This document shows positions 6,627 to 54,199 of a stretch of DNA of 64,000 bases, in pieces (the stretch's first letter is position 1; each line of letters begins with the position of its first letter). The position numbers were made by a program, and so were the translations under genes. The DNA is from Candidatus Kapaibacterium sp. (GTDB lineage: Bacteria; Patescibacteriota; Patescibacteriia; UBA9934). The notes under the pieces were generated by a model. That model made no database searches, had not been told where the DNA came from, and was given only the letters and a program-made list of their open reading frames with translations. The stretch spans positions 306,295-370,294 of the forward strand of contig JBILHA010000002.1 of the NCBI GenBank assembly GCA_044350705.1, in the 5' to 3' direction.

Positions 6627-7898
6627 ATGCTCTTCTCTTTTTTTCTCCTTCTTACGCTCGGACTTTTTACCTGGCTGAGCATCCGTCATTTTCATAGTGC
6701 CCTTCTCCTCTTTCTTGCTCTTTTTCCTACCTATCTCATCCGCTTCTCCCTTGGCCCTCTTCCTACCACCCTTCTTGAGCTGTGTTTTTTTGTTCTCTTT
6801 GGTGTTTGGGTTGTTCGTCGTTTGCGCGCGCATACCCTCTTTCTTCCTTCTCGGGGCATTCTTGTTTTCTTTTTTCTTCTCAGCATCCTTCCTTTGGCGG
6901 TGGTTCCCGGTGAACACCTCCTGTCCTCGCTTGGGCTTTGGCGGGCATATTTCCTCGAGCCATTCTTGCTCGGGTGGATCCTTTGGCATGAGTTGCAAGA
7001 TGAAACCATTCGTCTTCGAGCGTTTCTTGGCCTTTCGCTCTCTGGTTTTTTCCTCGCAGCGCTTGGTATTTTTCAATTCAGTACTGGGCTGGGCATTCCT
7101 GCTCCCTGGGATATTGAGCGAAGGATTACGAGTGTCTTTGATTACCCTAATGCCCTTGGACTTTTTCTCGCCCCTCTTTTAAGTGCACTTTTGGTATTCG
7201 GAATTTGCACCTGGAAGAATCGTCTTCCTCATGAAAAAACGTTTCTCGCTGGAGCGTGCACGGTCATGCTTCTTGCCATCATCTTGGCAAAAACTGAAGC
7301 TGCGCTTGTCGCCGTTCCTGCTGCGGTATTCATTTCGCTTTTCATTTCCCCCCTCATCTTACGCAAACATAAAATCATTGCCGGAGTTTTCGCTTCTCTT
7401 GCGCTTGTCGGTGCATTTGCTTTCCCCCACATTCGAGCCAAGCTTCTTCTTCAAGATTTCTCTGGAGGCGTACGACTCTCGCAGTGGAAAGAAACGATCG
7501 AGCTTCTCAAAGATCACCCGATTACTGGCGCAGGCATAGGATATTATCCCGAACTTCTCCGGACTTCTTATCATCACGATTGGCAGTATGAGATTTTCCA
7601 ATATCCCCACAATATTCTTCTCAACATCTGGGTTGAGTTGGGTATTTTAGGCGTGGTTCTTTTTCTTGTGGGCGCGTGCTATCTCGGAAGAAGCGTTTGG
7701 AAACAGCGTTCTTCTCCTCTTCCTCTTGCCGCAGGTGCTGCACTTCTTGCCATGGCTATTCATGGACTTGTTGATGTTCCTTTTTTTAAAAATGATTTAG
7801 CGATGATGACGGTGGTGTTTGTGATTTTTATCATGGGAGCAGCGGGGAGTAAGGATGGGAACATAGGGAGTATGCATGGAAGCACGGGGAGTAAGTAA
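6627..7898 (+). CDS. O-antigen ligase family (Wzy_C-like) membrane protein
   Basis: Polytopic membrane protein with a large periplasmic loop typical of the O-antigen ligase/WaaL family. Confidence 0.65.
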   Translation: MLFSFFLLLTLGLFTWLSIRHFHSALLLFLALFPTYLIRFSLGPLPTTLLELCFFVLFGVWVVRRLRAHTLFLPSRGILVFFFLLSILPLAVVPGEHLLSSLGLWRAYFLEPFLLGWILWHELQDETIRLRAFLGLSLSGFFLAALGIFQFSTGLGIPAPWDIERRITSVFDYPNALGLFLAPLLSALLVFGICTWKNRLPHEKTFLAGACTVMLLAIILAKTEAALVAVPAAVFISLFISPLILRKHKIIAGVFASLALVGAFAFPHIRAKLLLQDFSGGVRLSQWKETIELLKDHPITGAGIGYYPELLRTSYHHDWQYEIFQYPHNILLNIWVELGILGVVLFLVGACYLGRSVWKQRSSPLPLAAGAALLAMAIHGLVDVPFFKNDLAMMTVVFVIFIMGAAGSKDGNIGSMHGSTGSK

Positions 7899-8016
7899 AA
7901 TAGGCGATTTTTGTTTTTTACAGAGTTTTCCTTTCTTTTCTAAACGCAAAACGAGCGTCCGGGACGTGTCACACGCGATTGCGTGACACGCCCGAACGCT
8001 CGAGACGAAGGGGAGG

Positions 8017-8580
8017 CTAGCGGCACATCCCCACAAAGAGGGTGTTCGCGCCGCGGACCCGGAGGTCCACATCGCAGGTCGACTTTGCGACTTGCGTCGC
8101 CAGCGCTCCCTGCATGATGTGGTACGGGTCCCCCAGCACGATGGCCGGGAGGGTGGTGCCGGGGACGACCCCCGGACTCTCGATATCCAGGCCGGACATC
8201 GAGTACCTGGTCACCGTCACGCTCACGAGCGTTACGGCGCCGAAGTCCACCCATCCGCGCTCGCCGGGAGCGAGCACCGAGGCACACCGCGTGCCGGTCG
8301 GCCCAGCGACGTACACGCACTGCGTGACGCCACCTTCCGTAACGACGGCACGGGGTACGCCGCCGGAGCCGGCAGAGGTTCGATAGGAGAACCCCAGCTC
8401 GATGGCTGCGTCGGTGTTGTTGATGAACTGCACCACCGTGGGACCCGCCTTGGGGACACGCATCACCTGCGCTCCCAGCATCCCCGTGTTCGGGCTCACC
8501 GCCGGGTTGGCGGAAGCAGAGGAGATGGCGAGAACCAGGGCGGCGAGGAAGCTAAACATGGGAGGCTCCATGGGGCACAA
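8017..8580 (-). CDS. secreted hypothetical protein (high-GC island)
   Basis: Sec signal peptide MFSFLAALVLAISSASA, Cys-containing mature part, GC-rich codons. Confidence 0.6.
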   Translation of the reverse strand: MCPMEPPMFSFLAALVLAISSASANPAVSPNTGMLGAQVMRVPKAGPTVVQFINNTDAAIELGFSYRTSAGSGGVPRAVVTEGGVTQCVYVAGPTGTRCASVLAPGERGWVDFGAVTLVSVTVTRYSMSGLDIESPGVVPGTTLPAIVLGDPYHIMQGALATQVAKSTCDVDLRVRGANTLFVGMCR

Positions 8581-8733
8581 GGCCCGGTGAGGAAAGGACG
8601 TGCTCGGGACAGGATGTCATCGAGCGGTGTATGCACTCCTCATCGAGAAGGACATGCACTGCATGATGAGCTGATTCAGGGGAGCCAACAGTGCATTGCT
8701 GCGTGTTGGCTCCCCCACGGGAACGAGGGCCTT

Positions 8734-9333
8734 CTAGCGACCGGCGGCCGCGCGGGCTCGGGCCTCGGCGGCCGCGACCTCGGCGGGGGTGGGCCCGGGG
8801 GGCGGGGGGCGACGGGTCTGCGCGTGCGCGGGCGCGGGGGGCGGCGGGAGGAAACCCCCGCCGTTGACGGCCTGCAGAGCCGCCATGTCGGCGGCCGCCT
8901 GGCTGGGCCAGCCACCGAGCGGCACGCCGAGCGTGCCCTGCATCGCGGCGTAGGACGCCGCTTGGCCGGTCGCCACCTCCCCATCGGTGGATACGTAGGT
9001 GTCGCGGCCCTGGGCCGCGGCGGTGACGGCCACCGTCGCCCCCGCCTGGGCGAGGGTGAGGGCGGCCTGGGCCTGGGCCTGGGCCCGAACGCACTGCGCG
9101 CGGGCATCCGCCGCGGCGGCGAGCATCTCGCTCGCCGCCTCCGCGCTCAGGAACTGCGCACCGTTGGTGCGCAGGTTGGCACAGCCGTCCGGGCCCCAGC
9201 CCACGACGAGCGCGGGGTCCCGGGCGAAGAGCCCGGAACGGTTGCGAACGGGGGCCGGCTCCTCGGCGGAAGCCGGGGAGGAGGTGGCGACGAGGGCGGC
9301 GATCAGGGACAGCGAGAACAGGATGGAACGCAT
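8734..9333 (-). CDS. secreted Ala/Gln/Pro-rich hypothetical protein (high-GC island)
   Basis: Signal peptide MRSILFSLSLIAALVATSSPASA. Low-complexity AQAQAQ and PPPP tracts. Confidence 0.55.
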   Translation of the reverse strand: MRSILFSLSLIAALVATSSPASAEEPAPVRNRSGLFARDPALVVGWGPDGCANLRTNGAQFLSAEAASEMLAAAADARAQCVRAQAQAQAALTLAQAGATVAVTAAAQGRDTYVSTDGEVATGQAASYAAMQGTLGVPLGGWPSQAAADMAALQAVNGGGFLPPPPAPAHAQTRRPPPPGPTPAEVAAAEARARAAAGR

Positions 9334-9433
9334 GAGCGTTTCCCCTTTGCCTTTCGGCGGTGTGGCCCGAAGGCCGTTGTTTCAACGATCATTCGGTACA
9401 ATGCGTGGCTTTCCACGTCATTTCCGAACAGTT

Positions 9434-9463
9434 CAGTATAGCAAAAAAATGCAAAAAAATCAA
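9434..9463 (-). promoter_or_regulatory. sigma70-like promoter (TTGATT-17-TATACT) for the 8734-9333 gene
   Basis: Read on the minus strand; about 100 nt upstream of the start codon. Near-exact mirror image of the promoter at 9619-9646. Confidence 0.5.
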
Positions 9464-9618
9464 GCTAAGAGGCGAATGGGATTTCACATGGAAACTTGGG
9501 ATTTCTTAATAAAACCGCGGGTATTACGTCTCAGAACGGGGGTGGGGATAGGTGTGTGAATATCGGACTTGTCGAAATGACATTCTTAAAATTCTTCCCC
9601 TTCCTTCTCTTTCTCTCC

Positions 9619-9646
9619 ATTGATTTTTTTGCATTTTTTTGCTATG
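9619..9646 (+). promoter_or_regulatory. sigma70-like promoter (TTGATT-16-TATGAT) for the 9754-11844 gene
   Basis: About 100 nt upstream of the start. ttgattttttgcatttttttgct is the reverse complement of 9441-9463. Confidence 0.5.
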
Positions 9647-9753
9647 ATGCGCCGTTCCAGATCCATGCTTCCTGCATGAGAAATGGACGATCTCTCACAA
9701 TCCTCTTCATCACTTCACCCCCTGGTTCGCAGTGAACCAGATAGGAGAACCGT

Positions 9754-11844
9754 ATGGCTTTAGACCTCGCCGCGATCCTGTCTCTCCTCTTGGGGGAGCA
9801 GAAGCGCGAGAAGCGGAAGGCTGAGACGGGCAAGGGGGATGGGCAGGACGCTCTGCACGACGCGTTTATTGACGCGATTTTGCCGGAGTTGTCGAGTTAC
9901 TTCCTGACCCTCTTCGAGGAGAAGGATGCGCCGACGCTCCTGCGCTCGCTCAACGCGTTCATCCTTACGGTGTATCAGGCTTCGCCTGACGCCCTCCAGT
10001 TCCTCATCCGACTTATGGCAAATGTGTCGGTTGAGAAGTGGCAGGACCGCGCGAAGCGCAGGAATATCCCCGCCTGGGCGCTCACTGCTCCCATGGTCTT
10101 CATCAAGGCCTACTTCGGCGCCCTGGAAGACATGGCGTCGAAAAACAAGGCGCAGGGCAAGCAGACCACCCCTGAGGACATCAAGGCCGCTCTCAACAAT
10201 TTCGCCAAGAAGGCGAAGCAGACGGGGAGTGACCTCAACACGAAGCTCGGCGCGGCCCAGAAAGCTGCGCGGGACTTCGCTTCCAGTCACAAGACCACCA
10301 CGGAGGGCCCGGACATGGGCAACCCCCACGCCAACCCCAAGCCGCCGCCCTCCGCGGGCGGCGCCGGTGGGGGTTCGCCCCCGCCGCCCAACAACCCCAA
10401 GCCCGCGCAGAAGGACGGGGACGACAAGAAGGGCTCGATCGGCGAGCTCGTGGACACAGTGAAGGACGTCTTCACCGCCCTCAGCGCCATCGTGGCGTGG
10501 TGGGGCGATAGGGGCGAGGACCACATCCAGGAGGGGGCTCGCGCCCTCTTCTGGGTGCCCGTCGCCCTCCTCGTGACGGCGGCGTTCACCTTCGTCGCGG
10601 CCATCTCTCCCCGAGATGAGCCGATGATGGTGGTGACGGCGGCGGCGGCGATCTTCTGGACCCTGGGCCCCTTCGCGGCATACTGGATCTGGCGGCGCAA
10701 CGCCAGCCTCGAGGCCGAAAAGAACGAGGAAAACCCGGCCGAGCGCCCCGGCAACGGGGTGATCGAGCTCGGCATGCTCGCCGTCACCGGCGGCTTTGTT
10801 GGGAGCATCTCGATGCTCACCATCACCGCCGTCTGCGTGGTCGGCTCCTTCTCGAGCGGGTTCCATCCGCTCTACTACTGGATCAGCATGATCGCCATGG
10901 CAGCGGTTTTTGTCACCTGCATGGCGACCGACATGCTCACGGACTCCCTTAAAAGCATCGGGGGCTTGGCGATCCCTCGCCTGCGCAGCGAAACGCTGCC
11001 CAATCGGGTGACGAGGAGCTTCTCGCTCTTCGGACTGGTTTTTGGCCTGGCTATGGCCGTTCCGGTTCTGGCGTACACCTTCGGTCTCACGGACTATGTG
11101 GGATCGAAGGTCGCTCTTGGACTATTCCTCGGAATCGTCGCAGGCTTTCTCAACACCCGGGTCGCCAACGCTCCCAATCACCCCCCCTTCACTCCTCTCC
11201 TGGAGCAGTTCAACCGGAACGTGCTTCGGGACTACAAAACGTCCCGGAGCATCCTCTTCGCGGGGATCATCCCCATCGTCTTCTTCACGCTCTTCGATCT
11301 CTTCGCGCCGCCGCGGTGCCCCACCGATCCGGAGCTCGCTCCCAGCGAGTGCCCGGTCGAGCTCCCGACCTACGCGGAGCGGTGGCATGACTCGGACATC
11401 CGGGAAATCGGTGGCCGCGCTTACCACGCGGTCGTCGGCCTCTTTCTGGATGACGAGGAGGGAGATGAGGACGACTCCTCGACGGCCCTGATGACGGTGG
11501 TTCCCGCGGACAACGACACCTGCTCCGCGCGGGTGGAAGTGTTCGTCGCGGGCATCGCCACGGATGACTGCAAAGTCATCCTGAAGGCAGGGACGGACGC
11601 CGACCTGATCGCCTTGTGCGACCAGGCTCGGGACTGCGGGGCGCTCGCGCCCAACGGCCGCAAGGTCGTGCAGGTCGTCCGGGAGAAGAAGGAGTGGACG
11701 GTGGCCGATGTGGACGACTGGGGAGTTGGTGAGGTGGTGCTGGCGGGCTTCGCGCTCGTCGGTGTCCTCTTCCTCGTCATCCTCATCCTTGCCGCGCTAG
11801 GAGGCGGTGAGGAGAAGAAGGACGGCCACAGCAAGGGCCACTAG
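9754..11844 (+). CDS. large polytopic membrane protein with an N-terminal cytoplasmic domain, a Pro/Gly-rich linker and a Cys-rich C-terminal region; unknown function (high-GC island)
   Basis: 696 aa, about 10 predicted TM helices, PPPSAGGAGGGSPPPP linker, conserved Cys pairs near the C-terminus, final TM anchor. Confidence 0.6.
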   Translation: MALDLAAILSLLLGEQKREKRKAETGKGDGQDALHDAFIDAILPELSSYFLTLFEEKDAPTLLRSLNAFILTVYQASPDALQFLIRLMANVSVEKWQDRAKRRNIPAWALTAPMVFIKAYFGALEDMASKNKAQGKQTTPEDIKAALNNFAKKAKQTGSDLNTKLGAAQKAARDFASSHKTTTEGPDMGNPHANPKPPPSAGGAGGGSPPPPNNPKPAQKDGDDKKGSIGELVDTVKDVFTALSAIVAWWGDRGEDHIQEGARALFWVPVALLVTAAFTFVAAISPRDEPMMVVTAAAAIFWTLGPFAAYWIWRRNASLEAEKNEENPAERPGNGVIELGMLAVTGGFVGSISMLTITAVCVVGSFSSGFHPLYYWISMIAMAAVFVTCMATDMLTDSLKSIGGLAIPRLRSETLPNRVTRSFSLFGLVFGLAMAVPVLAYTFGLTDYVGSKVALGLFLGIVAGFLNTRVANAPNHPPFTPLLEQFNRNVLRDYKTSRSILFAGIIPIVFFTLFDLFAPPRCPTDPELAPSECPVELPTYAERWHDSDIREIGGRAYHAVVGLFLDDEEGDEDDSSTALMTVVPADNDTCSARVEVFVAGIATDDCKVILKAGTDADLIALCDQARDCGALAPNGRKVVQVVREKKEWTVADVDDWGVGEVVLAGFALVGVLFLVILILAALGGGEEKKDGHSKGH

Positions 11845-11953
11845 GAGGAGAGCAACCGCGTACAGTGGCGCGGGAAGGAACGGAAAAGCACACGGTACGT
11901 CGCAAGACGGACCTCTCGTGCTCGACCGGACCTTCCCGCGCCTTTTCGTTTCA

Positions 11954-11988
11954 ATAAAAAAACGCCCCGTGAGGGGCATTCTTTTTTT
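11954..11988. terminator. bidirectional rho-independent terminator
   Basis: aaaaaaacgccccgtgaggggcattcttttttt between convergent genes. Confidence 0.75.
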
Positions 11989-12370
11989 AGGTTACTGCGG
12001 TTTGTACTTGCGTGATAACGAAGTTGGAAATCGCGTATGCAGAGAGCAAGATCACGAGACCTACGACTGCCGTGATGAGAATATCCTTTGCCTTTCCGGT
12101 CTGCTTGCTGTCTCCCGCTGCGGTCATCCAGAGCCAACCTGCGTAGAGCGTAAGGAACAAGAAGACGATACCGAGCAAACTCAATCCGATGTTAATGAGC
12201 GTACCGATTGTGGTTGTAAGATCGTTATCACTTAAACCCGTTGCGCTTCCTACTTCACCGAGTGAAGCATCCAAATCAAGATCGTTGCCAGTGGCAAGTG
12301 CTGGCACTGCGCTTGCAAAAGGTGCTGCAGCGATTGCTGCTCCTGCCAAAAAGTGTTTCCAGTTTTTCAT
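11987..12370 (-). CDS. VirB2/TrbC-like (T4SS pilin-like) small membrane protein, paralog 1
   Basis: Signal peptide (start taken at MKNWKHF), then TM-loop-TM with the motif LYAGWLWMTAAGDSKQTGKAKD. Confidence 0.7.
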   Translation of the reverse strand: MKNWKHFLAGAAIAAAPFASAVPALATGNDLDLDASLGEVGSATGLSDNDLTTTIGTLINIGLSLLGIVFLFLTLYAGWLWMTAAGDSKQTGKAKDILITAVVGLVILLSAYAISNFVITQVQTAVT

Positions 12371-12434
12371 AGGATATTTTATGGATATATTGTAGCATGT
12401 TTTTTCTCTTTCTCTAGTTACTGTGGATAGGGCT

Positions 12435-13139
12435 TTAGCTTCCCCCGATAATTGAGTCGCTATAATCCCATCCTCCCGCGGCTCGTTCTCCTGAAAGCCG
12501 TCCAATAATGAATGAGGAAATACTGTAGGCGAGGAGCGTAAGAATGAGCCCAATGAGCGCATTCTTCATGATGGACTTTGCTTTGTCTACTTGCTTTCCG
12601 TCTCCTTGTGCGGTCATCCAGAGAATGCCGGCGTAGATAAAGAGTACCAGCAGGACAACACCGAGAAGATTGAGCACGATACTGATCATTGTTCCAATAT
12701 TATCGAGCAAGTCCGTACTTGTTACTCCTGTTGATTCGAATGTCTGTTGCGCATTCTCACTCAATAGGACATCTGCACCGGGAGCTTGTGCGATAAAGAA
12801 GAATACTATTGCATTTGCAGAGAGGGTGATGATGAGACCCACCACGGCATTTGCCATCACATCTTTCGCTTTCTTCACCTGCTTTTCGTCGCCTTGTGCG
12901 GTCATCCAAAGGAATCCTGCGTATACAAAGTAGATGAGGAGAAGAACGCTTAATAAACCTAACGCGAGGTTGATGAACAATCCTATGAGCGTGGGCAAAC
13001 TTCCCTCCGAACCTGTTACATTAATTTCCGCCCCTTGGCCTGCAGTCTGTAGTTCCGTTTGTCCTAGATCTATTGCCAATGCCCCTACAGGAAAGCATAG
13101 AGACATGGCTACGATGGCCATCCATTTTAAAATACGCAT
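12435..13139 (-). CDS. tandem double-domain VirB2/TrbC-like pilin protein, paralogs 2a and 2b fused
   Basis: Two complete TM-loop-TM modules, VYAGFLWMTAQGDEKQVKKAKD and IYAGILWMTAQGDGKQVDKAKS, in a single ORF. Confidence 0.65.
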   Translation of the reverse strand: MRILKWMAIVAMSLCFPVGALAIDLGQTELQTAGQGAEINVTGSEGSLPTLIGLFINLALGLLSVLLLIYFVYAGFLWMTAQGDEKQVKKAKDVMANAVVGLIITLSANAIVFFFIAQAPGADVLLSENAQQTFESTGVTSTDLLDNIGTMISIVLNLLGVVLLVLFIYAGILWMTAQGDGKQVDKAKSIMKNALIGLILTLLAYSISSFIIGRLSGERAAGGWDYSDSIIGGS

Positions 13140-13149
13140 ATCTCTTCTT

Positions 13150-13575
13150 CTAGCCTCCTCCCGCCGTCGTCGTTGAGAGCGAAGTTACAACGAAGTTTGC
13201 TATTGCGTATGCACCCACGAGAATAACCGTTCCCACTACACACTGCGTAAGAATATCTTTTGCTTTCTGCACTTTCTTTGAGTCGCCTTGTGCGGTCACC
13301 CAGAGAAAACCTGCATAGGTCATGAGCGCAAAGAGAAGGGTACCTGTAAGCCCAAGTGCCGGTCGAATGACATAGGTTCCCACAAATTGTGGCAGCGTCA
13401 TGGTTATGGAGGTACTTGCTAATCCATACCCTTCTTTTGCCGTAGTTCCCAATCCAGTATCACTCGAACCTAATTGCGCAAATGCCGCAGTGGGGAGCAA
13501 GAAACTTAGAACAACAAATAATTTCAGAAGAATATTTTTCATACAAAAGGTTCCAAGTTCAAACGCTCCCCGCAC
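13150..13575 (-). CDS. VirB2/TrbC-like pilin-like protein, paralog 3
   Basis: Signal peptide, motif TYAGFLWVTAQGDSKKVQKAKD. Start may be the internal Met at about 13542. Confidence 0.7.
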   Translation of the reverse strand: MRGAFELGTFCMKNILLKLFVVLSFLLPTAAFAQLGSSDTGLGTTAKEGYGLASTSITMTLPQFVGTYVIRPALGLTGTLLFALMTYAGFLWVTAQGDSKKVQKAKDILTQCVVGTVILVGAYAIANFVVTSLSTTTAGGG

Positions 13576-13578
13576 GCA

Positions 13579-13974
13579 TTACGCTGTTGCGTCGAGAATT
13601 GAGGAGATGACGAAGCTTGCAATTGCGTATGCGGACATGATGATCGCCAGACCAATCAGACCAGAAATCATAAGGCGCTTTGCTTCGCCCACCTTTTCGT
13701 CGTTTCCACCTGCGGTCATCCACTTAAATCCACCGTAGAGCACAATACATACGGCGATAACACCCAAGAAACCAAGCGCAACACGAATCAGGTTACCGAT
13801 GGTGGTCTGCAGATCTGCCTGACCAAGTCCTGTTGCATCTGAAAAATCATCTCCCAAGAAATCCTCCGCTTCGAGAGGCTGTGCGTATGCGATCGGAATT
13901 ATTCTCGCGAAAGGAAGTGCAAGAAATACTCCCAGTGCCGCACTCATAAGGAAACGCAATGTTTTGTTCATCAT
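13579..13974 (-). CDS. VirB2/TrbC-like pilin-like protein, paralog 4
   Basis: Signal peptide, motif LYGGFKWMTAGGNDEKVGEAKR. Confidence 0.7.
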   Translation of the reverse strand: MMNKTLRFLMSAALGVFLALPFARIIPIAYAQPLEAEDFLGDDFSDATGLGQADLQTTIGNLIRVALGFLGVIAVCIVLYGGFKWMTAGGNDEKVGEAKRLMISGLIGLAIIMSAYAIASFVISSILDATA

Positions 13975-14009
13975 AGATATTTCTCAATATGGGAAAAGTA
14001 TAACATCTT

Positions 14010-14357
14010 TTATGCACCCGTTGCGCTTCCTGTGGTAAACGCATTTACGATCGCATTTACTATTACGTATGCTCCCGCAATAACTCCCAATCCCAGCACC
14101 GCCCAGACCATGATATCTTTTCCGCGCTGCACTTTTTTCTGTTCACCGTTTGCGGTAATCCAGAGTACACCTGCGTATACAAACATGAGAAGCGTAATCG
14201 TTCCGATAACGGAAAGAAGTCCCGAGATGATACGTCCCGCTAAAATACGAGGATCCGTTTCGCCGAGGGGATTGATGAGATGTACCGTCTGTGCAGAAAC
14301 GAGGTGCGGCGCAAGGATAAGTAGACCGCAGATAAGCGTAAGAACATGCCGTTTCAT
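14010..14357 (-). CDS. VirB2/TrbC-like pilin-like protein, paralog 5
   Basis: Start taken at MKRHVLTLICGLLILAPHLVSA. Motif VYAGVLWITANGEQKKVQRGKD. Confidence 0.65.
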   Translation of the reverse strand: MKRHVLTLICGLLILAPHLVSAQTVHLINPLGETDPRILAGRIISGLLSVIGTITLLMFVYAGVLWITANGEQKKVQRGKDIMVWAVLGLGVIAGAYVIVNAIVNAFTTGSATGA

Positions 14358-14358
14358 A

Positions 14359-14916
14359 CTATTGGTTATTTGTGTCAATGACCTGTCCTGTGGGGATTTC
14401 GTATCTTCTTCCGTCTTCAGTCGCAGGGAGGTCTTGGATGGTTTCTTCAACCGTTGCTTGAGGATCAATTCCTCCGAGGATTGAAATGAGGAAATTGATC
14501 ATCGCGTATGCACCAAATATAATCGCCAGACCGATAATTGCGTGCTTCATGGTGTCTTTTCCGATTTGAATGTACTCAGGACGACCTTGCGCAAACACCC
14601 AATTCCACCCTCCGTAGATAAACATGAGCAGCGCTACCGTTCCAGAGATTCCGAGAATAAGAATGATGATGTTTACCGCGATTTGTACCAGTTCAGCGAG
14701 ACTACAAATTCCTTGTGCTCGACACTGACACGTGTCTCCTTCGCCACTTTCAGGAGCTGGATCTTCACAAATATTTGCGAAGATAATTCCCTGTTGCATG
14801 ATGTTCGTGTACCCCTGTGCAGCCGTTACATCTTGTGGCGCTGCGAATGCGAAGCTTGGCGCAATACACATGAATGCTCCAATACATGCTGCGAGGATAC
14901 GAGCGAAGAAACGCAT
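14359..14916 (-). CDS. VirB2/TrbC-like pilin-like protein, paralog 6, with a Cys-rich N-terminal insert
   Basis: Signal peptide, CEDPAPESGEGDTCQCRAQGIC insert, motif IYGGWNWVFAQGRPEYIQIGKD. Confidence 0.65.
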   Translation of the reverse strand: MRFFARILAACIGAFMCIAPSFAFAAPQDVTAAQGYTNIMQQGIIFANICEDPAPESGEGDTCQCRAQGICSLAELVQIAVNIIILILGISGTVALLMFIYGGWNWVFAQGRPEYIQIGKDTMKHAIIGLAIIFGAYAMINFLISILGGIDPQATVEETIQDLPATEDGRRYEIPTGQVIDTNNQ

Positions 14917-32870: not shown

Positions 32871-33146
32871 AACCGAACATTGTAGCAGTTTTTGCGTATT
32901 TTGTCAATGAAAAATGCCTATTATTTAGCTTAGATTAGCCAAATTATGAGGATTTCCTTCCTATCCTTTTCCCCTGCTCTTTCTTTCCCTCTTTCCCTCT
33001 TCGGTTTTCTTTGATTTTTCCCTATCTTTTCTCTTTTTTTCGAGGTATGATGCAGGAAATTGTTTTTTTCTATGTTTCGCTACGCGCAAAACCATAAATC
33101 TACTAAAAATCTCTCTTTTCAGGGCATTTCACGGTGGTTCAGTCGT

Positions 33147-53051: not shown

Positions 53052-53257
53052 AGATTTTTCTACAAATCGCATCATCTGAGTAGTGGGATGCTCAAACCCC
53101 AGACCAAGATGAAGGATATTTAAGGATTAACGGCTAAAGTTTATATTTTTTTGAGGGTTTTGTCAAAGAAATGATTGATTTTTTATTTTTCAGGCAAGGA
53201 ATACCTTCTTTATCCGTTCGTGTAACTATTTTACGACTCGTGATAACATTGAGATAT

Positions 53258-54199
53258 ATGGCAAAGCGATTGGAGGCGCATATCAAGGAATTTCTTGAGT
53301 ATTTGGAAATTGAGCGTGGGCGATCGGATAAAACCGTTCGTAATTATGGATTTTATTTGCATCGTTTTAGTGAATGGGCCAAGTCCCCTGCCCCGGCGGA
53401 AATTGATGCAGAGATGGTGCGACAGTTTCGTTTGCATTTGAATCGTGATGTTGCGGGACGTGATGAGCCTGCGCTTGCAAAGGCAACGCAGAATTATCAC
53501 TTAATCGCGCTTCGTGCATTTTTGAAATATCTCGCAAAGCGTGACGTGAAGACTCTTGCCGCAGAAAAGATTGAACTTGCAAAACAAGGATCTCGTCATG
53601 TGGAGTTTTTAGAAAAAGAAGAGCTTCTGCGCATTCTTGCGGAGCCAGGAAAGGATCCGACGATTCTTGGGTATCGGGATCGCGCAATTCTCGAGTTACT
53701 TTTCTCGACTGGACTTCGCGTATCGGAACTTGCGGGACTCAAAATTGAACAAGTGAACTTGAAGAACGATGAATTTACCGTGCTTGGAAAAGGAAGAAAG
53801 CATCGCATTGTCTTTCTTTCTCCCGAGTCAAAAGATGCGATTAAAGTGTATTTAGGCAAGCGCGAAGATGTTTCTCCGTACATGTTTGTACGTCATGATA
53901 AGGCGCGGCGAGCGAAGGGAGTGGGAGAAGAGTCAAAGCCCCTTACCCCTCGTTCTATTCAGCGTTTGGTTGATCGGTATGCGCGTATGGCGGGCATTAC
54001 GAAGTCGGTCACACCTCATACGCTTCGACATACATTTGCAACTGACCTTTTACGCAACGGAGCTGATATTCGTGCGGTGCAAACGATGCTTGGTCACGAA
54101 TCTATTACTACGACGCAGGTCTACACGCACGTTACGGATAAAGAACTCAAGCGCATTCATCAATCGTTTCACAATGCAGATAAAAAGAAAAAGGACTAG
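53258..54199 (+). CDS. tyrosine recombinase XerC/XerD family
   Basis: N-terminal SAM-like core-binding domain. Catalytic R..HxxR..Y motifs (LRHTFATDLL..., HESITTTQVYTHV). No flanking phage genes. Confidence 0.85.
   Translation: MAKRLEAHIKEFLEYLEIERGRSDKTVRNYGFYLHRFSEWAKSPAPAEIDAEMVRQFRLHLNRDVAGRDEPALAKATQNYHLIALRAFLKYLAKRDVKTLAAEKIELAKQGSRHVEFLEKEELLRILAEPGKDPTILGYRDRAILELLFSTGLRVSELAGLKIEQVNLKNDEFTVLGKGRKHRIVFLSPESKDAIKVYLGKREDVSPYMFVRHDKARRAKGVGEESKPLTPRSIQRLVDRYARMAGITKSVTPHTLRHTFATDLLRNGADIRAVQTMLGHESITTTQVYTHVTDKELKRIHQSFHNADKKKKD

Follow-up and report, generated by a model that had tools for sequence, protein, structure and literature searches.

Mirrored copies of a predicted core promoter at the centre of a hypervariable, GC-rich locus of secreted and membrane proteins

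Background

Divergently transcribed pairs hold about one quarter of the genes of Escherichia coli (PMC4469952). In an ordinary divergent pair, the intergenic region holds two separate core promoters, one per strand, that drive their respective units outward, and the two promoters are unrelated in sequence. The intergenic module described here lies between positions 9333 and 9754 of a 64,000-nucleotide stretch of Candidatus Kapaibacterium sp. DNA (contig JBILHA010000002.1; the whole 64-kb stretch is referred to as the window, and positions are given within it). It has the layout of an ordinary pair, but its two predicted promoters are copies of a single 38-42-bp sequence that agree at every base over 26 bp, and the pair has been kept across species and has evolved partly in concert. 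Divergent transcription from symmetrical promoter DNA has also been described in another form, in which the symmetry of a single -10 region yields a bidirectional promoter (PMC12825309, PMC10268837). Such promoters consist of one pseudo-symmetrical element that is bound either way in a mutually exclusive manner, whereas the present module holds two non-overlapping promoters whose -35 elements are ~20 to ~190 bp apart. No shared -10 element is read on both strands here, and each locus carries two complete promoters. What is conserved here is a whole core promoter together with its mirrored copy, which sets the module apart both from pairs of unrelated promoters and from single symmetrical elements.

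Replacement-type hypervariable surface islands include the O-antigen loci and the SAR11 hypervariable regions. The locus around the module shares with these islands a single site beside Wzy, polysaccharide and pilin genes, at which otherwise near-identical strains carry differing cassettes. It differs from them in having a central non-coding module that is 95-98% identical, in a cassette GC (guanine plus cytosine) content above that of the genome, and in being occupied by one lineage-restricted family. Neisseria pilE is an antigenic-variation expression site. The tprK expression site of Treponema pallidum is another (PMC8480903). The likeness to these sites lies in a constant promoter and leader placed before a highly variable surface-protein coding sequence; here, however, no silent donor cassettes or template repeat were found in the window, and the variation is between strains and not within a genome. 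By analogy, the locus as a whole resembles both the replacement-type surface islands and the antigenic-variation expression sites. Literature searches returned no published description of the locus or of mirrored promoter duplicates, and to our knowledge the promoters of candidate-phyla bacteria are almost uncharacterised. The pair is a rare case in which a core promoter has been retained together with its mirror copy through a long span of evolution. It marks a hypervariable, compositionally aberrant surface-protein locus with a persistent GC excess, which bears on the surface variation of host-dependent bacteria and on the forces that set local base composition.

Results and discussion

The mirrored promoter module

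We read the module as two copies of one core promoter set back to back, an ancient pair that is under selection, is sometimes homogenised and serves as the hub of a hypervariable locus; we consider this reading probable and hold it with good confidence. The module is bounded by an inverted repeat, with a left arm at 9426..9463 (read on the minus strand) and a right arm at 9620..9657 (plus strand), each 38 nt long, 87% complementary and 156 nt apart. Its perfect core is the 26-mer TTGATTTTTTTGCATTTTTTTGCTAT, located at 9438-9463 on the minus strand and at 9620-9645 on the plus strand, and a tandem 10-mer GCAAAAAAAT occurs twice in each arm. These are the only two matches to the 26-mer in the window when up to three mismatches are allowed, against 0.00 expected from 100 dinucleotide shuffles. 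A first-pass annotation of this DNA had noted a 23-bp repeat. The repeat is indeed present and is longer than was noted; its right copy lies at 9620-9642, not at 9619-9641, and the string that had been given as a 23-mer contains 24 letters when counted, starting at 9440.

Read outward, each arm has the sequence of a complete core promoter. In the left arm, the -35 element TTGATT (9463-9458, minus) is followed by a 17-bp T-tract spacer (9457-9441) that ends in TGC at the extended -10 position, by the -10 element TATACT (9440-9435) and by GAACTGTTC, with a predicted transcription start at ~9427-9429. In the right arm, TTGATT at 9620-9625 (plus) is followed by the spacer at 9626-9642, by TATGAT at 9643-9648 and by GCGCCGTTC, with a predicted start at ~9654-9656. 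The dinucleotide TG occupies the extended -10 position of both arms, and the two -10 elements are 195 bp apart. The first-pass annotation had already recognised sigma-70-like hexamers facing outward; both features hold, while the spacers, which it had put at 16-17 bp, are both 17 bp. It had also correctly placed the gene starts at 9333 (minus) and 9754 (plus), which leaves leaders of ~95-100 nt. The -35 and -10 elements, their spacing and orientation, and their distance to a gene with a ribosome-binding site all agree with a promoter of the sigma-70 type. These features support the prediction that the arms are two outward-facing promoters of that type.

Conservation and specificity of the promoter sequence

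Related loci allowed the arms to be compared. L020-L026 are the contigs of the seven full-length homologues of a 696-aa membrane protein encoded to the right of the module, L014-L019 were found via the exact sequence of a flanking pilin gene, and L012 was found via the lone homologue of a 180-aa protein encoded to the left. A promoter arm is present upstream of each of the seven full-length homologues. Both outward arms are present in all loci that cover both sides, namely the six distinct loci of the window, L021, L022, L020, L023 and L025 as well as the strain contigs L015/L017, and the right arm is present in L024 and L026, both of which are truncated by the end of the contig. Nowhere else in the intergenic alignment is conservation as high as in the arms. 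Since the same architecture occurs in every relative recovered, including those whose proteins are 27-41% identical, we conclude that the arrangement is ancestral to the lineage.

Comparison of 14 distinct arm sequences, taken from the window and seven related loci, gave the consensus TTGATT-TTTT(C)nnnTTTTTwTGC-TAnnnT-nnnnn-GTTC(C/G)G. Its invariant columns are TTGATTTTTT, TTTTT, TGCTA, the final T of the -10 element and GTTC. They include the positions read by the sigma-70 holoenzyme (TTGA of the -35 element, TG of the extended -10, and T1, A2 and T6 of the -10 element), while variation is found in the middle of the -10 element (positions 3-5), at four spacer positions and in the five bases 3' of the -10 element. 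The -35 element TTGATT matches TTGACA at 4/6 positions and is the same in 14/14 arm sequences. The TGC 5' of the -10 element never varies, and the spacer measures 17 bp in all arms (13) but the left arm of L023, where it is 18 bp. When the window was scanned with a 42-nt weight matrix, the left and right arms scored 53 and 48 bits, respectively, and the next-best site reached 12.7 bits, which is under the best score of shuffled sequence (15.3 bits). The strict pattern TTGAnn-N17-TGnTAnnnT has three sites in the 64 kb, two of which are the arms. Both scans indicate that the motif is specific to the locus and is not the generic promoter of this genome. The outcome is a promoter consensus of 42 nt, validated by comparison across loci, TTGATT-TTTTnnnnTTTTTnTGC-TAnnnT-n5-GTTC, which can serve as an expression tool.

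The third strict extended -10 match is located at 32879-32907 on the minus strand (TTGACAAAATACGCAAAAACTGCTACAAT, followed directly by GTTCGG). It has TGCTAnnAT and GTTCGG in common with the arms and lies upstream of a 184-aa open reading frame (ORF) without a Pfam match, divergent from a class A penicillin-binding protein gene.

Extent of the repeat and the DNA between its arms

The repeat unit comprises TTGATT, a 17-bp spacer of two T-tracts, TGn-TAnnnT, five variable bases and GTTC. It therefore spans the DNA from the first base of the -35 element to the first bases of the predicted transcript, which is the extent of a core promoter and not that of a transposon end. In fact, similarity between the arms peaks at their inner ends and falls outward, the opposite of what transposon ends display. 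This bears on the possibility, raised by the first-pass annotation in the form of a small inserted element with 23-bp terminal repeats, that a miniature inverted-repeat transposable element (MITE) of ~230 bp was inserted between two genes. Terminal inverted repeats of 38 nt at 87% and a composition unlike that of the immediate neighbours would suit a MITE. However, no target-site duplication is present, as a direct repeat is found neither in the flanks of the 38-bp arms (cgtcatttcc / cagatccatg) nor in those of the 26-bp arms (acagttcagt / gatgcgccgt). The inner DNA varies between species in length (~20-190 bp) and in sequence while the arms persist, no empty site was seen, and the arms end at the transcript start, beyond which the flanking leaders are conserved and arm-specific. 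The element is also single-copy in the DNA searched, with no further copies of the arms in the window or in ~100 kb of related loci. A search for the exact 23-mer, which had been proposed as a check for a multi-copy element, returned no genuine copy: the 2 + 8 matches in GTDB genomes and JGI metagenome contigs, collections that do not include the source genome, were isolated, of low complexity and set in unrelated DNA. Similarity to plasmids, phages or IMG/VR contigs was likewise not found. We consequently give a MITE next to no credence.

Short inverted repeats also flank the ~150-300 bp of fimS-type invertible switches, which lie before surface-protein genes. The size and geometry of the present repeat resemble such phase-variation switches (~26-bp repeats, ~150 bp, before surface-protein genes), and its 26-38-bp arms could in principle be recombination sites between which the 156-bp segment flips. 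Here, however, the promoters lie inside the repeats, so that flipping the inner segment would leave them unchanged. In addition, a single orientation is seen in four assemblies of the species (the window, L014, L015/L017 and L021), the arms of L023 are only ~20 bp apart, and no invertase is encoded within 10 kb on either side. The chance that the module is an invertible switch is accordingly very small. The sole recombinase found in the window is a Xer-like tyrosine recombinase at 53171-54199 (plus), 44 kb from the repeat.

The inner spacer between the -35 elements (9464..9619; 156 bp, ~43% GC) is presumably not transcribed by the arm promoters. It is conserved within the species of the window, with 95-98% identity to strain L021, and is unrelated and unalignable between species, ranging from ~20 to ~190 bp. 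The distances between -35 elements, measured start to start, are 157, 154, 216, 151, 142 and ~21 bp and share no common helical phase; the shortest belongs to L023, where the elements are only ~20 bp apart. A DnaA-box-like sequence, TGTGGAT(A/G), occurs in the inner spacers of three more distant loci, L022 (~440-455), L020 (~545-560) and L025 (~720-735), about equally far from the left arm in each, and is absent from the spacer of the window.

Age of the duplication and probable homogenisation of the arms

The two parts of the arm differ in their history. In the transcribed part, 3' of the -10 element, left arms from different genomes agree with each other at a mean of 11.0/13 positions, and left and right arms within a genome at ~6. 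Left arms therefore group together in this part, which indicates that the duplication is older than the divergence of these genomes. The spacers of the left and right arms of one genome agree at 17, 16, 15, 15, 13 and 17 of 17 positions, and spacers from different genomes at a mean of 13.6-14.1 of 17. The species of the window also has a private variant, (T/C)GCA...T, in both of its arms. This pattern suggests that gene conversion has now and then acted between the arms, or that both arms co-evolve with one binding factor. The window, with its 26/26 identity of the arms, differs from the sister strains L015/L017 and L021 by one C-to-T change in the right arm.

The mechanism that we propose begins with RNA polymerase carrying the housekeeping sigma factor, which is predicted to start transcription at ~9428 on the minus strand and at ~9655 on the plus strand. 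Each transcript would open with a hairpin based on the conserved GTTC(C/G)G and continue into a leader of ~100 nt. The left transcript would then encode two small secreted proteins and the right transcript the 696-aa membrane protein. Selection on promoter function would keep the duplication, the core of which may be homogenised between the arms now and then. Expression would be driven from the module as an unchanging hub, and the module would probably also supply the homology that anchors the replacement of cassettes by recombination. Direct observation covers the repeat, the promoter-like pattern of its conservation, its orthology between genomes, its uniqueness in the DNA searched and the mosaic of conserved and divergent parts; the transcription starts, the sigma factor, the promoter strength, the stabilisation of transcripts by 5' hairpins and the role in anchoring recombination are inferred.

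Several points weigh against this reading. Promoter activity and transcription starts are predictions. The evidence for homogenisation comes from six genomes with few variable positions, and co-evolution of the arms with a protein would look alike. The scan for further copies of the arms covered 64 kb of the source genome and ~100 kb of its relatives. RNAalifold returned no consensus structure for the right leader from a MAFFT alignment, so that the structure of this leader, described below, is moderately supported. Finally, the ten-base invariant TTGATTTTTT and the invariant second T-tract exceed what contact with sigma-70 needs, and a bound protein or a requirement of DNA shape is therefore probably also involved.

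The last point leads to an explanation in which the arms are primarily operator sites. A DNA-binding protein, for instance a nucleoid protein or a transcriptional repressor or activator, would bind both arms through TTGATTTTTT...TTTTT and co-regulate the two units, and the promoter-like hexamers would lie within the operator or overlap it. The 10 + 5 invariant T-rich positions are in its favour, as are spacers that are more alike within a genome than orthologous spacers are between genomes, and a motif confined to the locus in all DNA scanned. Nevertheless, the distance between the arms and their helical phase are unconstrained, which argues against cooperative looping, no regulator gene is present in or beside the locus, and the pattern of invariant and variable positions in the hexamers is exactly that of a promoter. 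We therefore consider it unlikely that the arms are operators in the first place. A regulator that also recognises the T-tract spacer is plausible; it is compatible with the promoter reading and does not exclude it.

Leaders of the two predicted transcripts

The left leader (9334..9425, minus; ~95 nt) carries a small conserved hairpin, CGTGG-AAAG-CCACG (9417-9404), directly after the GTTCGG start region. A second hairpin of GGCC/GGCC and a ribosome-binding site, GGGGA, precede the ATG at 9333. Left leaders across the loci begin with GTTCGGAA(A/G)TG, followed by the hairpin, and RNAalifold analysis of six of them predicted 11 pairs, 3 of which have compensatory changes. The right leader (9658..9753, plus; ~100 nt) has a terminal hairpin at ~9653-9689, whose base lies on the conserved GTTCC, a conserved single-stranded motif, CACAATCCTCTTC, at 9696-9708, and AGGAG 6 nt 5' of the ATG at 9754. 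Right leaders across the loci begin with GTTCCG and carry a conserved CACAATCTTCTTC motif after the hairpin. When seven right leaders were folded singly, each opened with a ~33-nt hairpin of differing sequence; the z-scores of these hairpins were -2.0 to -3.5 in six leaders and -1.4 in the seventh. Rfam searches (E <= 1 over 7800-12200, and at the gathering threshold over the whole window) returned only tRNAs and noise.

A fixed module in a hypervariable locus

The comparison with L021 illustrates how sharply the locus differs between close relatives. At the protein level RuvB is 100% identical, SpoIID 98.5%, Polysacc_synt 95.6% and the pilin 92%. The large protein is 34% identical, the 198-aa counterpart of a 199-aa secreted protein is 42% identical, and no counterpart of the 180-aa protein was detected in L021. 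In the alignment of the DNA, the module bins at 9401-9600 are 95-98% identical and the genes on both sides ~35-55%. The divergence sets in abruptly at ~9340 and at ~9665-9700, where the module, taken together with the conserved parts of the leaders, comes to an end. A third strain type (L012 and L015/L017) has flanks that are 98.6% identical to those of the window, a module that is ~96% identical and a 180-aa protein that is 55% identical. The large protein of this type is weakly similar to that of the window over its N-terminal ~190 residues (window 9754-10302 against L017 3425-3994) and near-identical over the other ~500. The switch in similarity coincides with a Pro/Gly-rich linker and suggests that a recombination breakpoint lies within the gene.

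From these alignments we infer that the module acts as the constant expression hub of a hypervariable locus, and it probably also provides the homology anchor at which cassettes are replaced by recombination. A wider proposal can be made tentatively, and we hold it as somewhat less than an even chance. The twin-promoter module would form the constant hub of a type of locus not described before, in which cassettes with a GC content at third codon positions (GC3) of ~0.9 are quickly replaced or diverge, and in which the recombination anchor permits independent exchange on the left and on the right. Such a locus would hold lineage-restricted secreted and membrane proteins beside a pilin array in small-genome bacteria, probably Patescibacteria, and strains with ~98-100% identical housekeeping genes would have ~35-55% protein identity there.

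A Wzy-type O-antigen ligase encoded at 6627-7898 (plus) is 75% identical to its counterpart at 5117-6358 of L021, against 98-100% for RuvB and SpoIID. The strain-variable zone therefore reaches beyond the GC-rich genes. Many metagenome contigs (L012, L015-L019, L024 and L026) end inside the locus, as expected where co-existing strains differ sharply.

Base composition of the cassettes

In 200-bp windows the GC content is 0.42-0.49 across 9300-9800 and 0.58-0.82 in the flanking genes, and over the rest of the window it is 0.39-0.52, mostly 0.44-0.52. The first-pass annotation had described an AT-rich module within a GC-rich island. The contrast is real, but the module is merely of genome-average composition, so that it is the genes that deviate and not the module. 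Their GC3 is 0.85-0.92 in the window, with neighbours at 0.43-0.49, and 0.80-0.94 at every related locus, with neighbours at 0.40-0.56. The excess persists across substitution-saturated alleles whose proteins are 27-41% identical. The compositional anomaly is persistent and is not the signature of a fresh transfer.

This persistence bears on a recent origin of the promoters. The first-pass annotation had suggested that the cassette was re-promoterised after acquisition, meaning that a silent, horizontally acquired GC-rich cassette in a host of 47% GC recently gained a host-style promoter, which was then duplicated. The compositional contrast between the module and the genes is what this would produce, and the identity of the two 26-bp cores in the window strain could be taken for a recent duplication. 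However, every relative recovered has GC-rich genes around a module of ~45% GC at this chromosomal site, with both the architecture and the contrast maintained down to 27% protein identity. The borders have no integrase, tRNA gene or direct repeats, an exhaustive HMMER search of 1.84 billion representatives found no homologue of the 696-aa protein in a high-GC organism that could point to a GC-rich donor, and only the single C-to-T change noted above separates the identical cores of this strain from the arms of its sister strains. Recent re-promoterisation is thus very unlikely. A recently acquired island was also considered for the cassette itself and rejected, as the deviant composition fits but the locus lies at the same site in all relatives and homologues from a donor lineage are absent.

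A regional bias of mutation or conversion should also have enriched the inner spacer, which it has not. The force would therefore be tied to transcribed or coding DNA, or else the genes would be imported from an unsampled pool. Selection on transcripts could be responsible for the high GC3, as could biased repair or conversion linked to transcription or recombination.

Genes of the cassette

The GC-rich stretch (~7945-11955) contains three genes. The left unit consists of a gene for a 199-aa Ala/Pro-rich protein with a signal peptide (8734..9333, minus; GC 0.78, GC3 0.92), followed by one for the 180-aa secreted protein (8017..8559, minus; GC3 0.85). The right unit encodes the 696-aa protein, an all-helical multi-pass membrane protein (9754..11844, plus; GC3 0.85) with a variable N-terminal domain, the Pro/Gly linker and a Cys-rich C-terminal domain. 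High GC creates long alternative ORFs, and the GC3 values pick out these frames among them; ribosome-binding sites and GC3 periodicity back the gene calls and their orientation. Gene callers choose wrong-strand ORFs in the GC-rich part, such as a 440-aa call on the opposite strand, and the called start of P0008 reads through the right promoter arm.

The 180-aa, 199-aa and 696-aa proteins have no match in Pfam, NCBIfam, PHROGs or PDB sequences. In word-indexed searches the 696-aa and 199-aa proteins seemed to be orphans. The HMMER search corrected this for the 696-aa protein, with 11 homologues that are 27-41% identical except for one 97% fragment. The word-indexed search with the 199-aa protein returned only itself, and tblastn against the related loci gave 36-42% identity. 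The lone homologue of the 180-aa protein is P0003, from the L012 strain type. Alignment A4 of the 696-aa family has 31 invariant columns. An AlphaFold2 model of the 696-aa protein, built with 8 sequences, had a mean predicted local distance difference test score (pLDDT) of 56 and a predicted template-modelling score (pTM) of 0.36 and was too poor for a fold search. A VirB6/TrbL-like role, prompted by the adjoining pilin genes, found no support.

The 180-aa gene is probably co-transcribed with the 199-aa gene across a conserved 153-bp intergenic stretch (8581-8733). This stretch is near-identical in L012, although the 180-aa protein is 55% identical there, and contains at 8680-8716 a hairpin with a 12-bp stem, GGGGAGCCAACA...TGTTGGCTCCCC. 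The stretch could serve as another conserved non-coding anchor, or else carry a signal for processing or termination.

Genomic setting and borders

The locus is not an assembly chimera, as independent contigs carry it. The stretch fetched from the 462-kb contig Ga0453917_0000001 (JGI 3300042340) is identical to the window, and the locus recurs in a 532-kb contig of another sample and in a Logan assembly. Its neighbours encode RuvB, SpoIID, a polysaccharide flippase, the Wzy-type ligase, PF18895 pilin paralogues and housekeeping proteins, including PolA, PNPase, trigger factor and ribosomal proteins. The pilin array and the gene content suggest a small-genome bacterium, probably one of the Patescibacteria. 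Each related locus has a large GC-rich gene (GC3 0.80-0.93) and an upstream divergent GC-rich gene, with intergenic DNA of ~0.43-0.47 GC between them, and a pilin gene (GC3 0.40-0.51) lies downstream of the large gene wherever the contig extends that far. In the window, a tandem array of six paralogous genes of the PF18895 type IV secretion pilin family (11987-14916, minus) lies directly downstream and converges on the locus, followed by a gene for a solute-binding protein. The right border (11867..11977, plus) consists of a long hairpin, 11867-11891 / 11918-11942, and then TTTTCGTTTC. A GC hairpin at 11964-11977, with T-runs on both sides, is shared with the convergent pilin gene, and these border hairpins are likely terminators.

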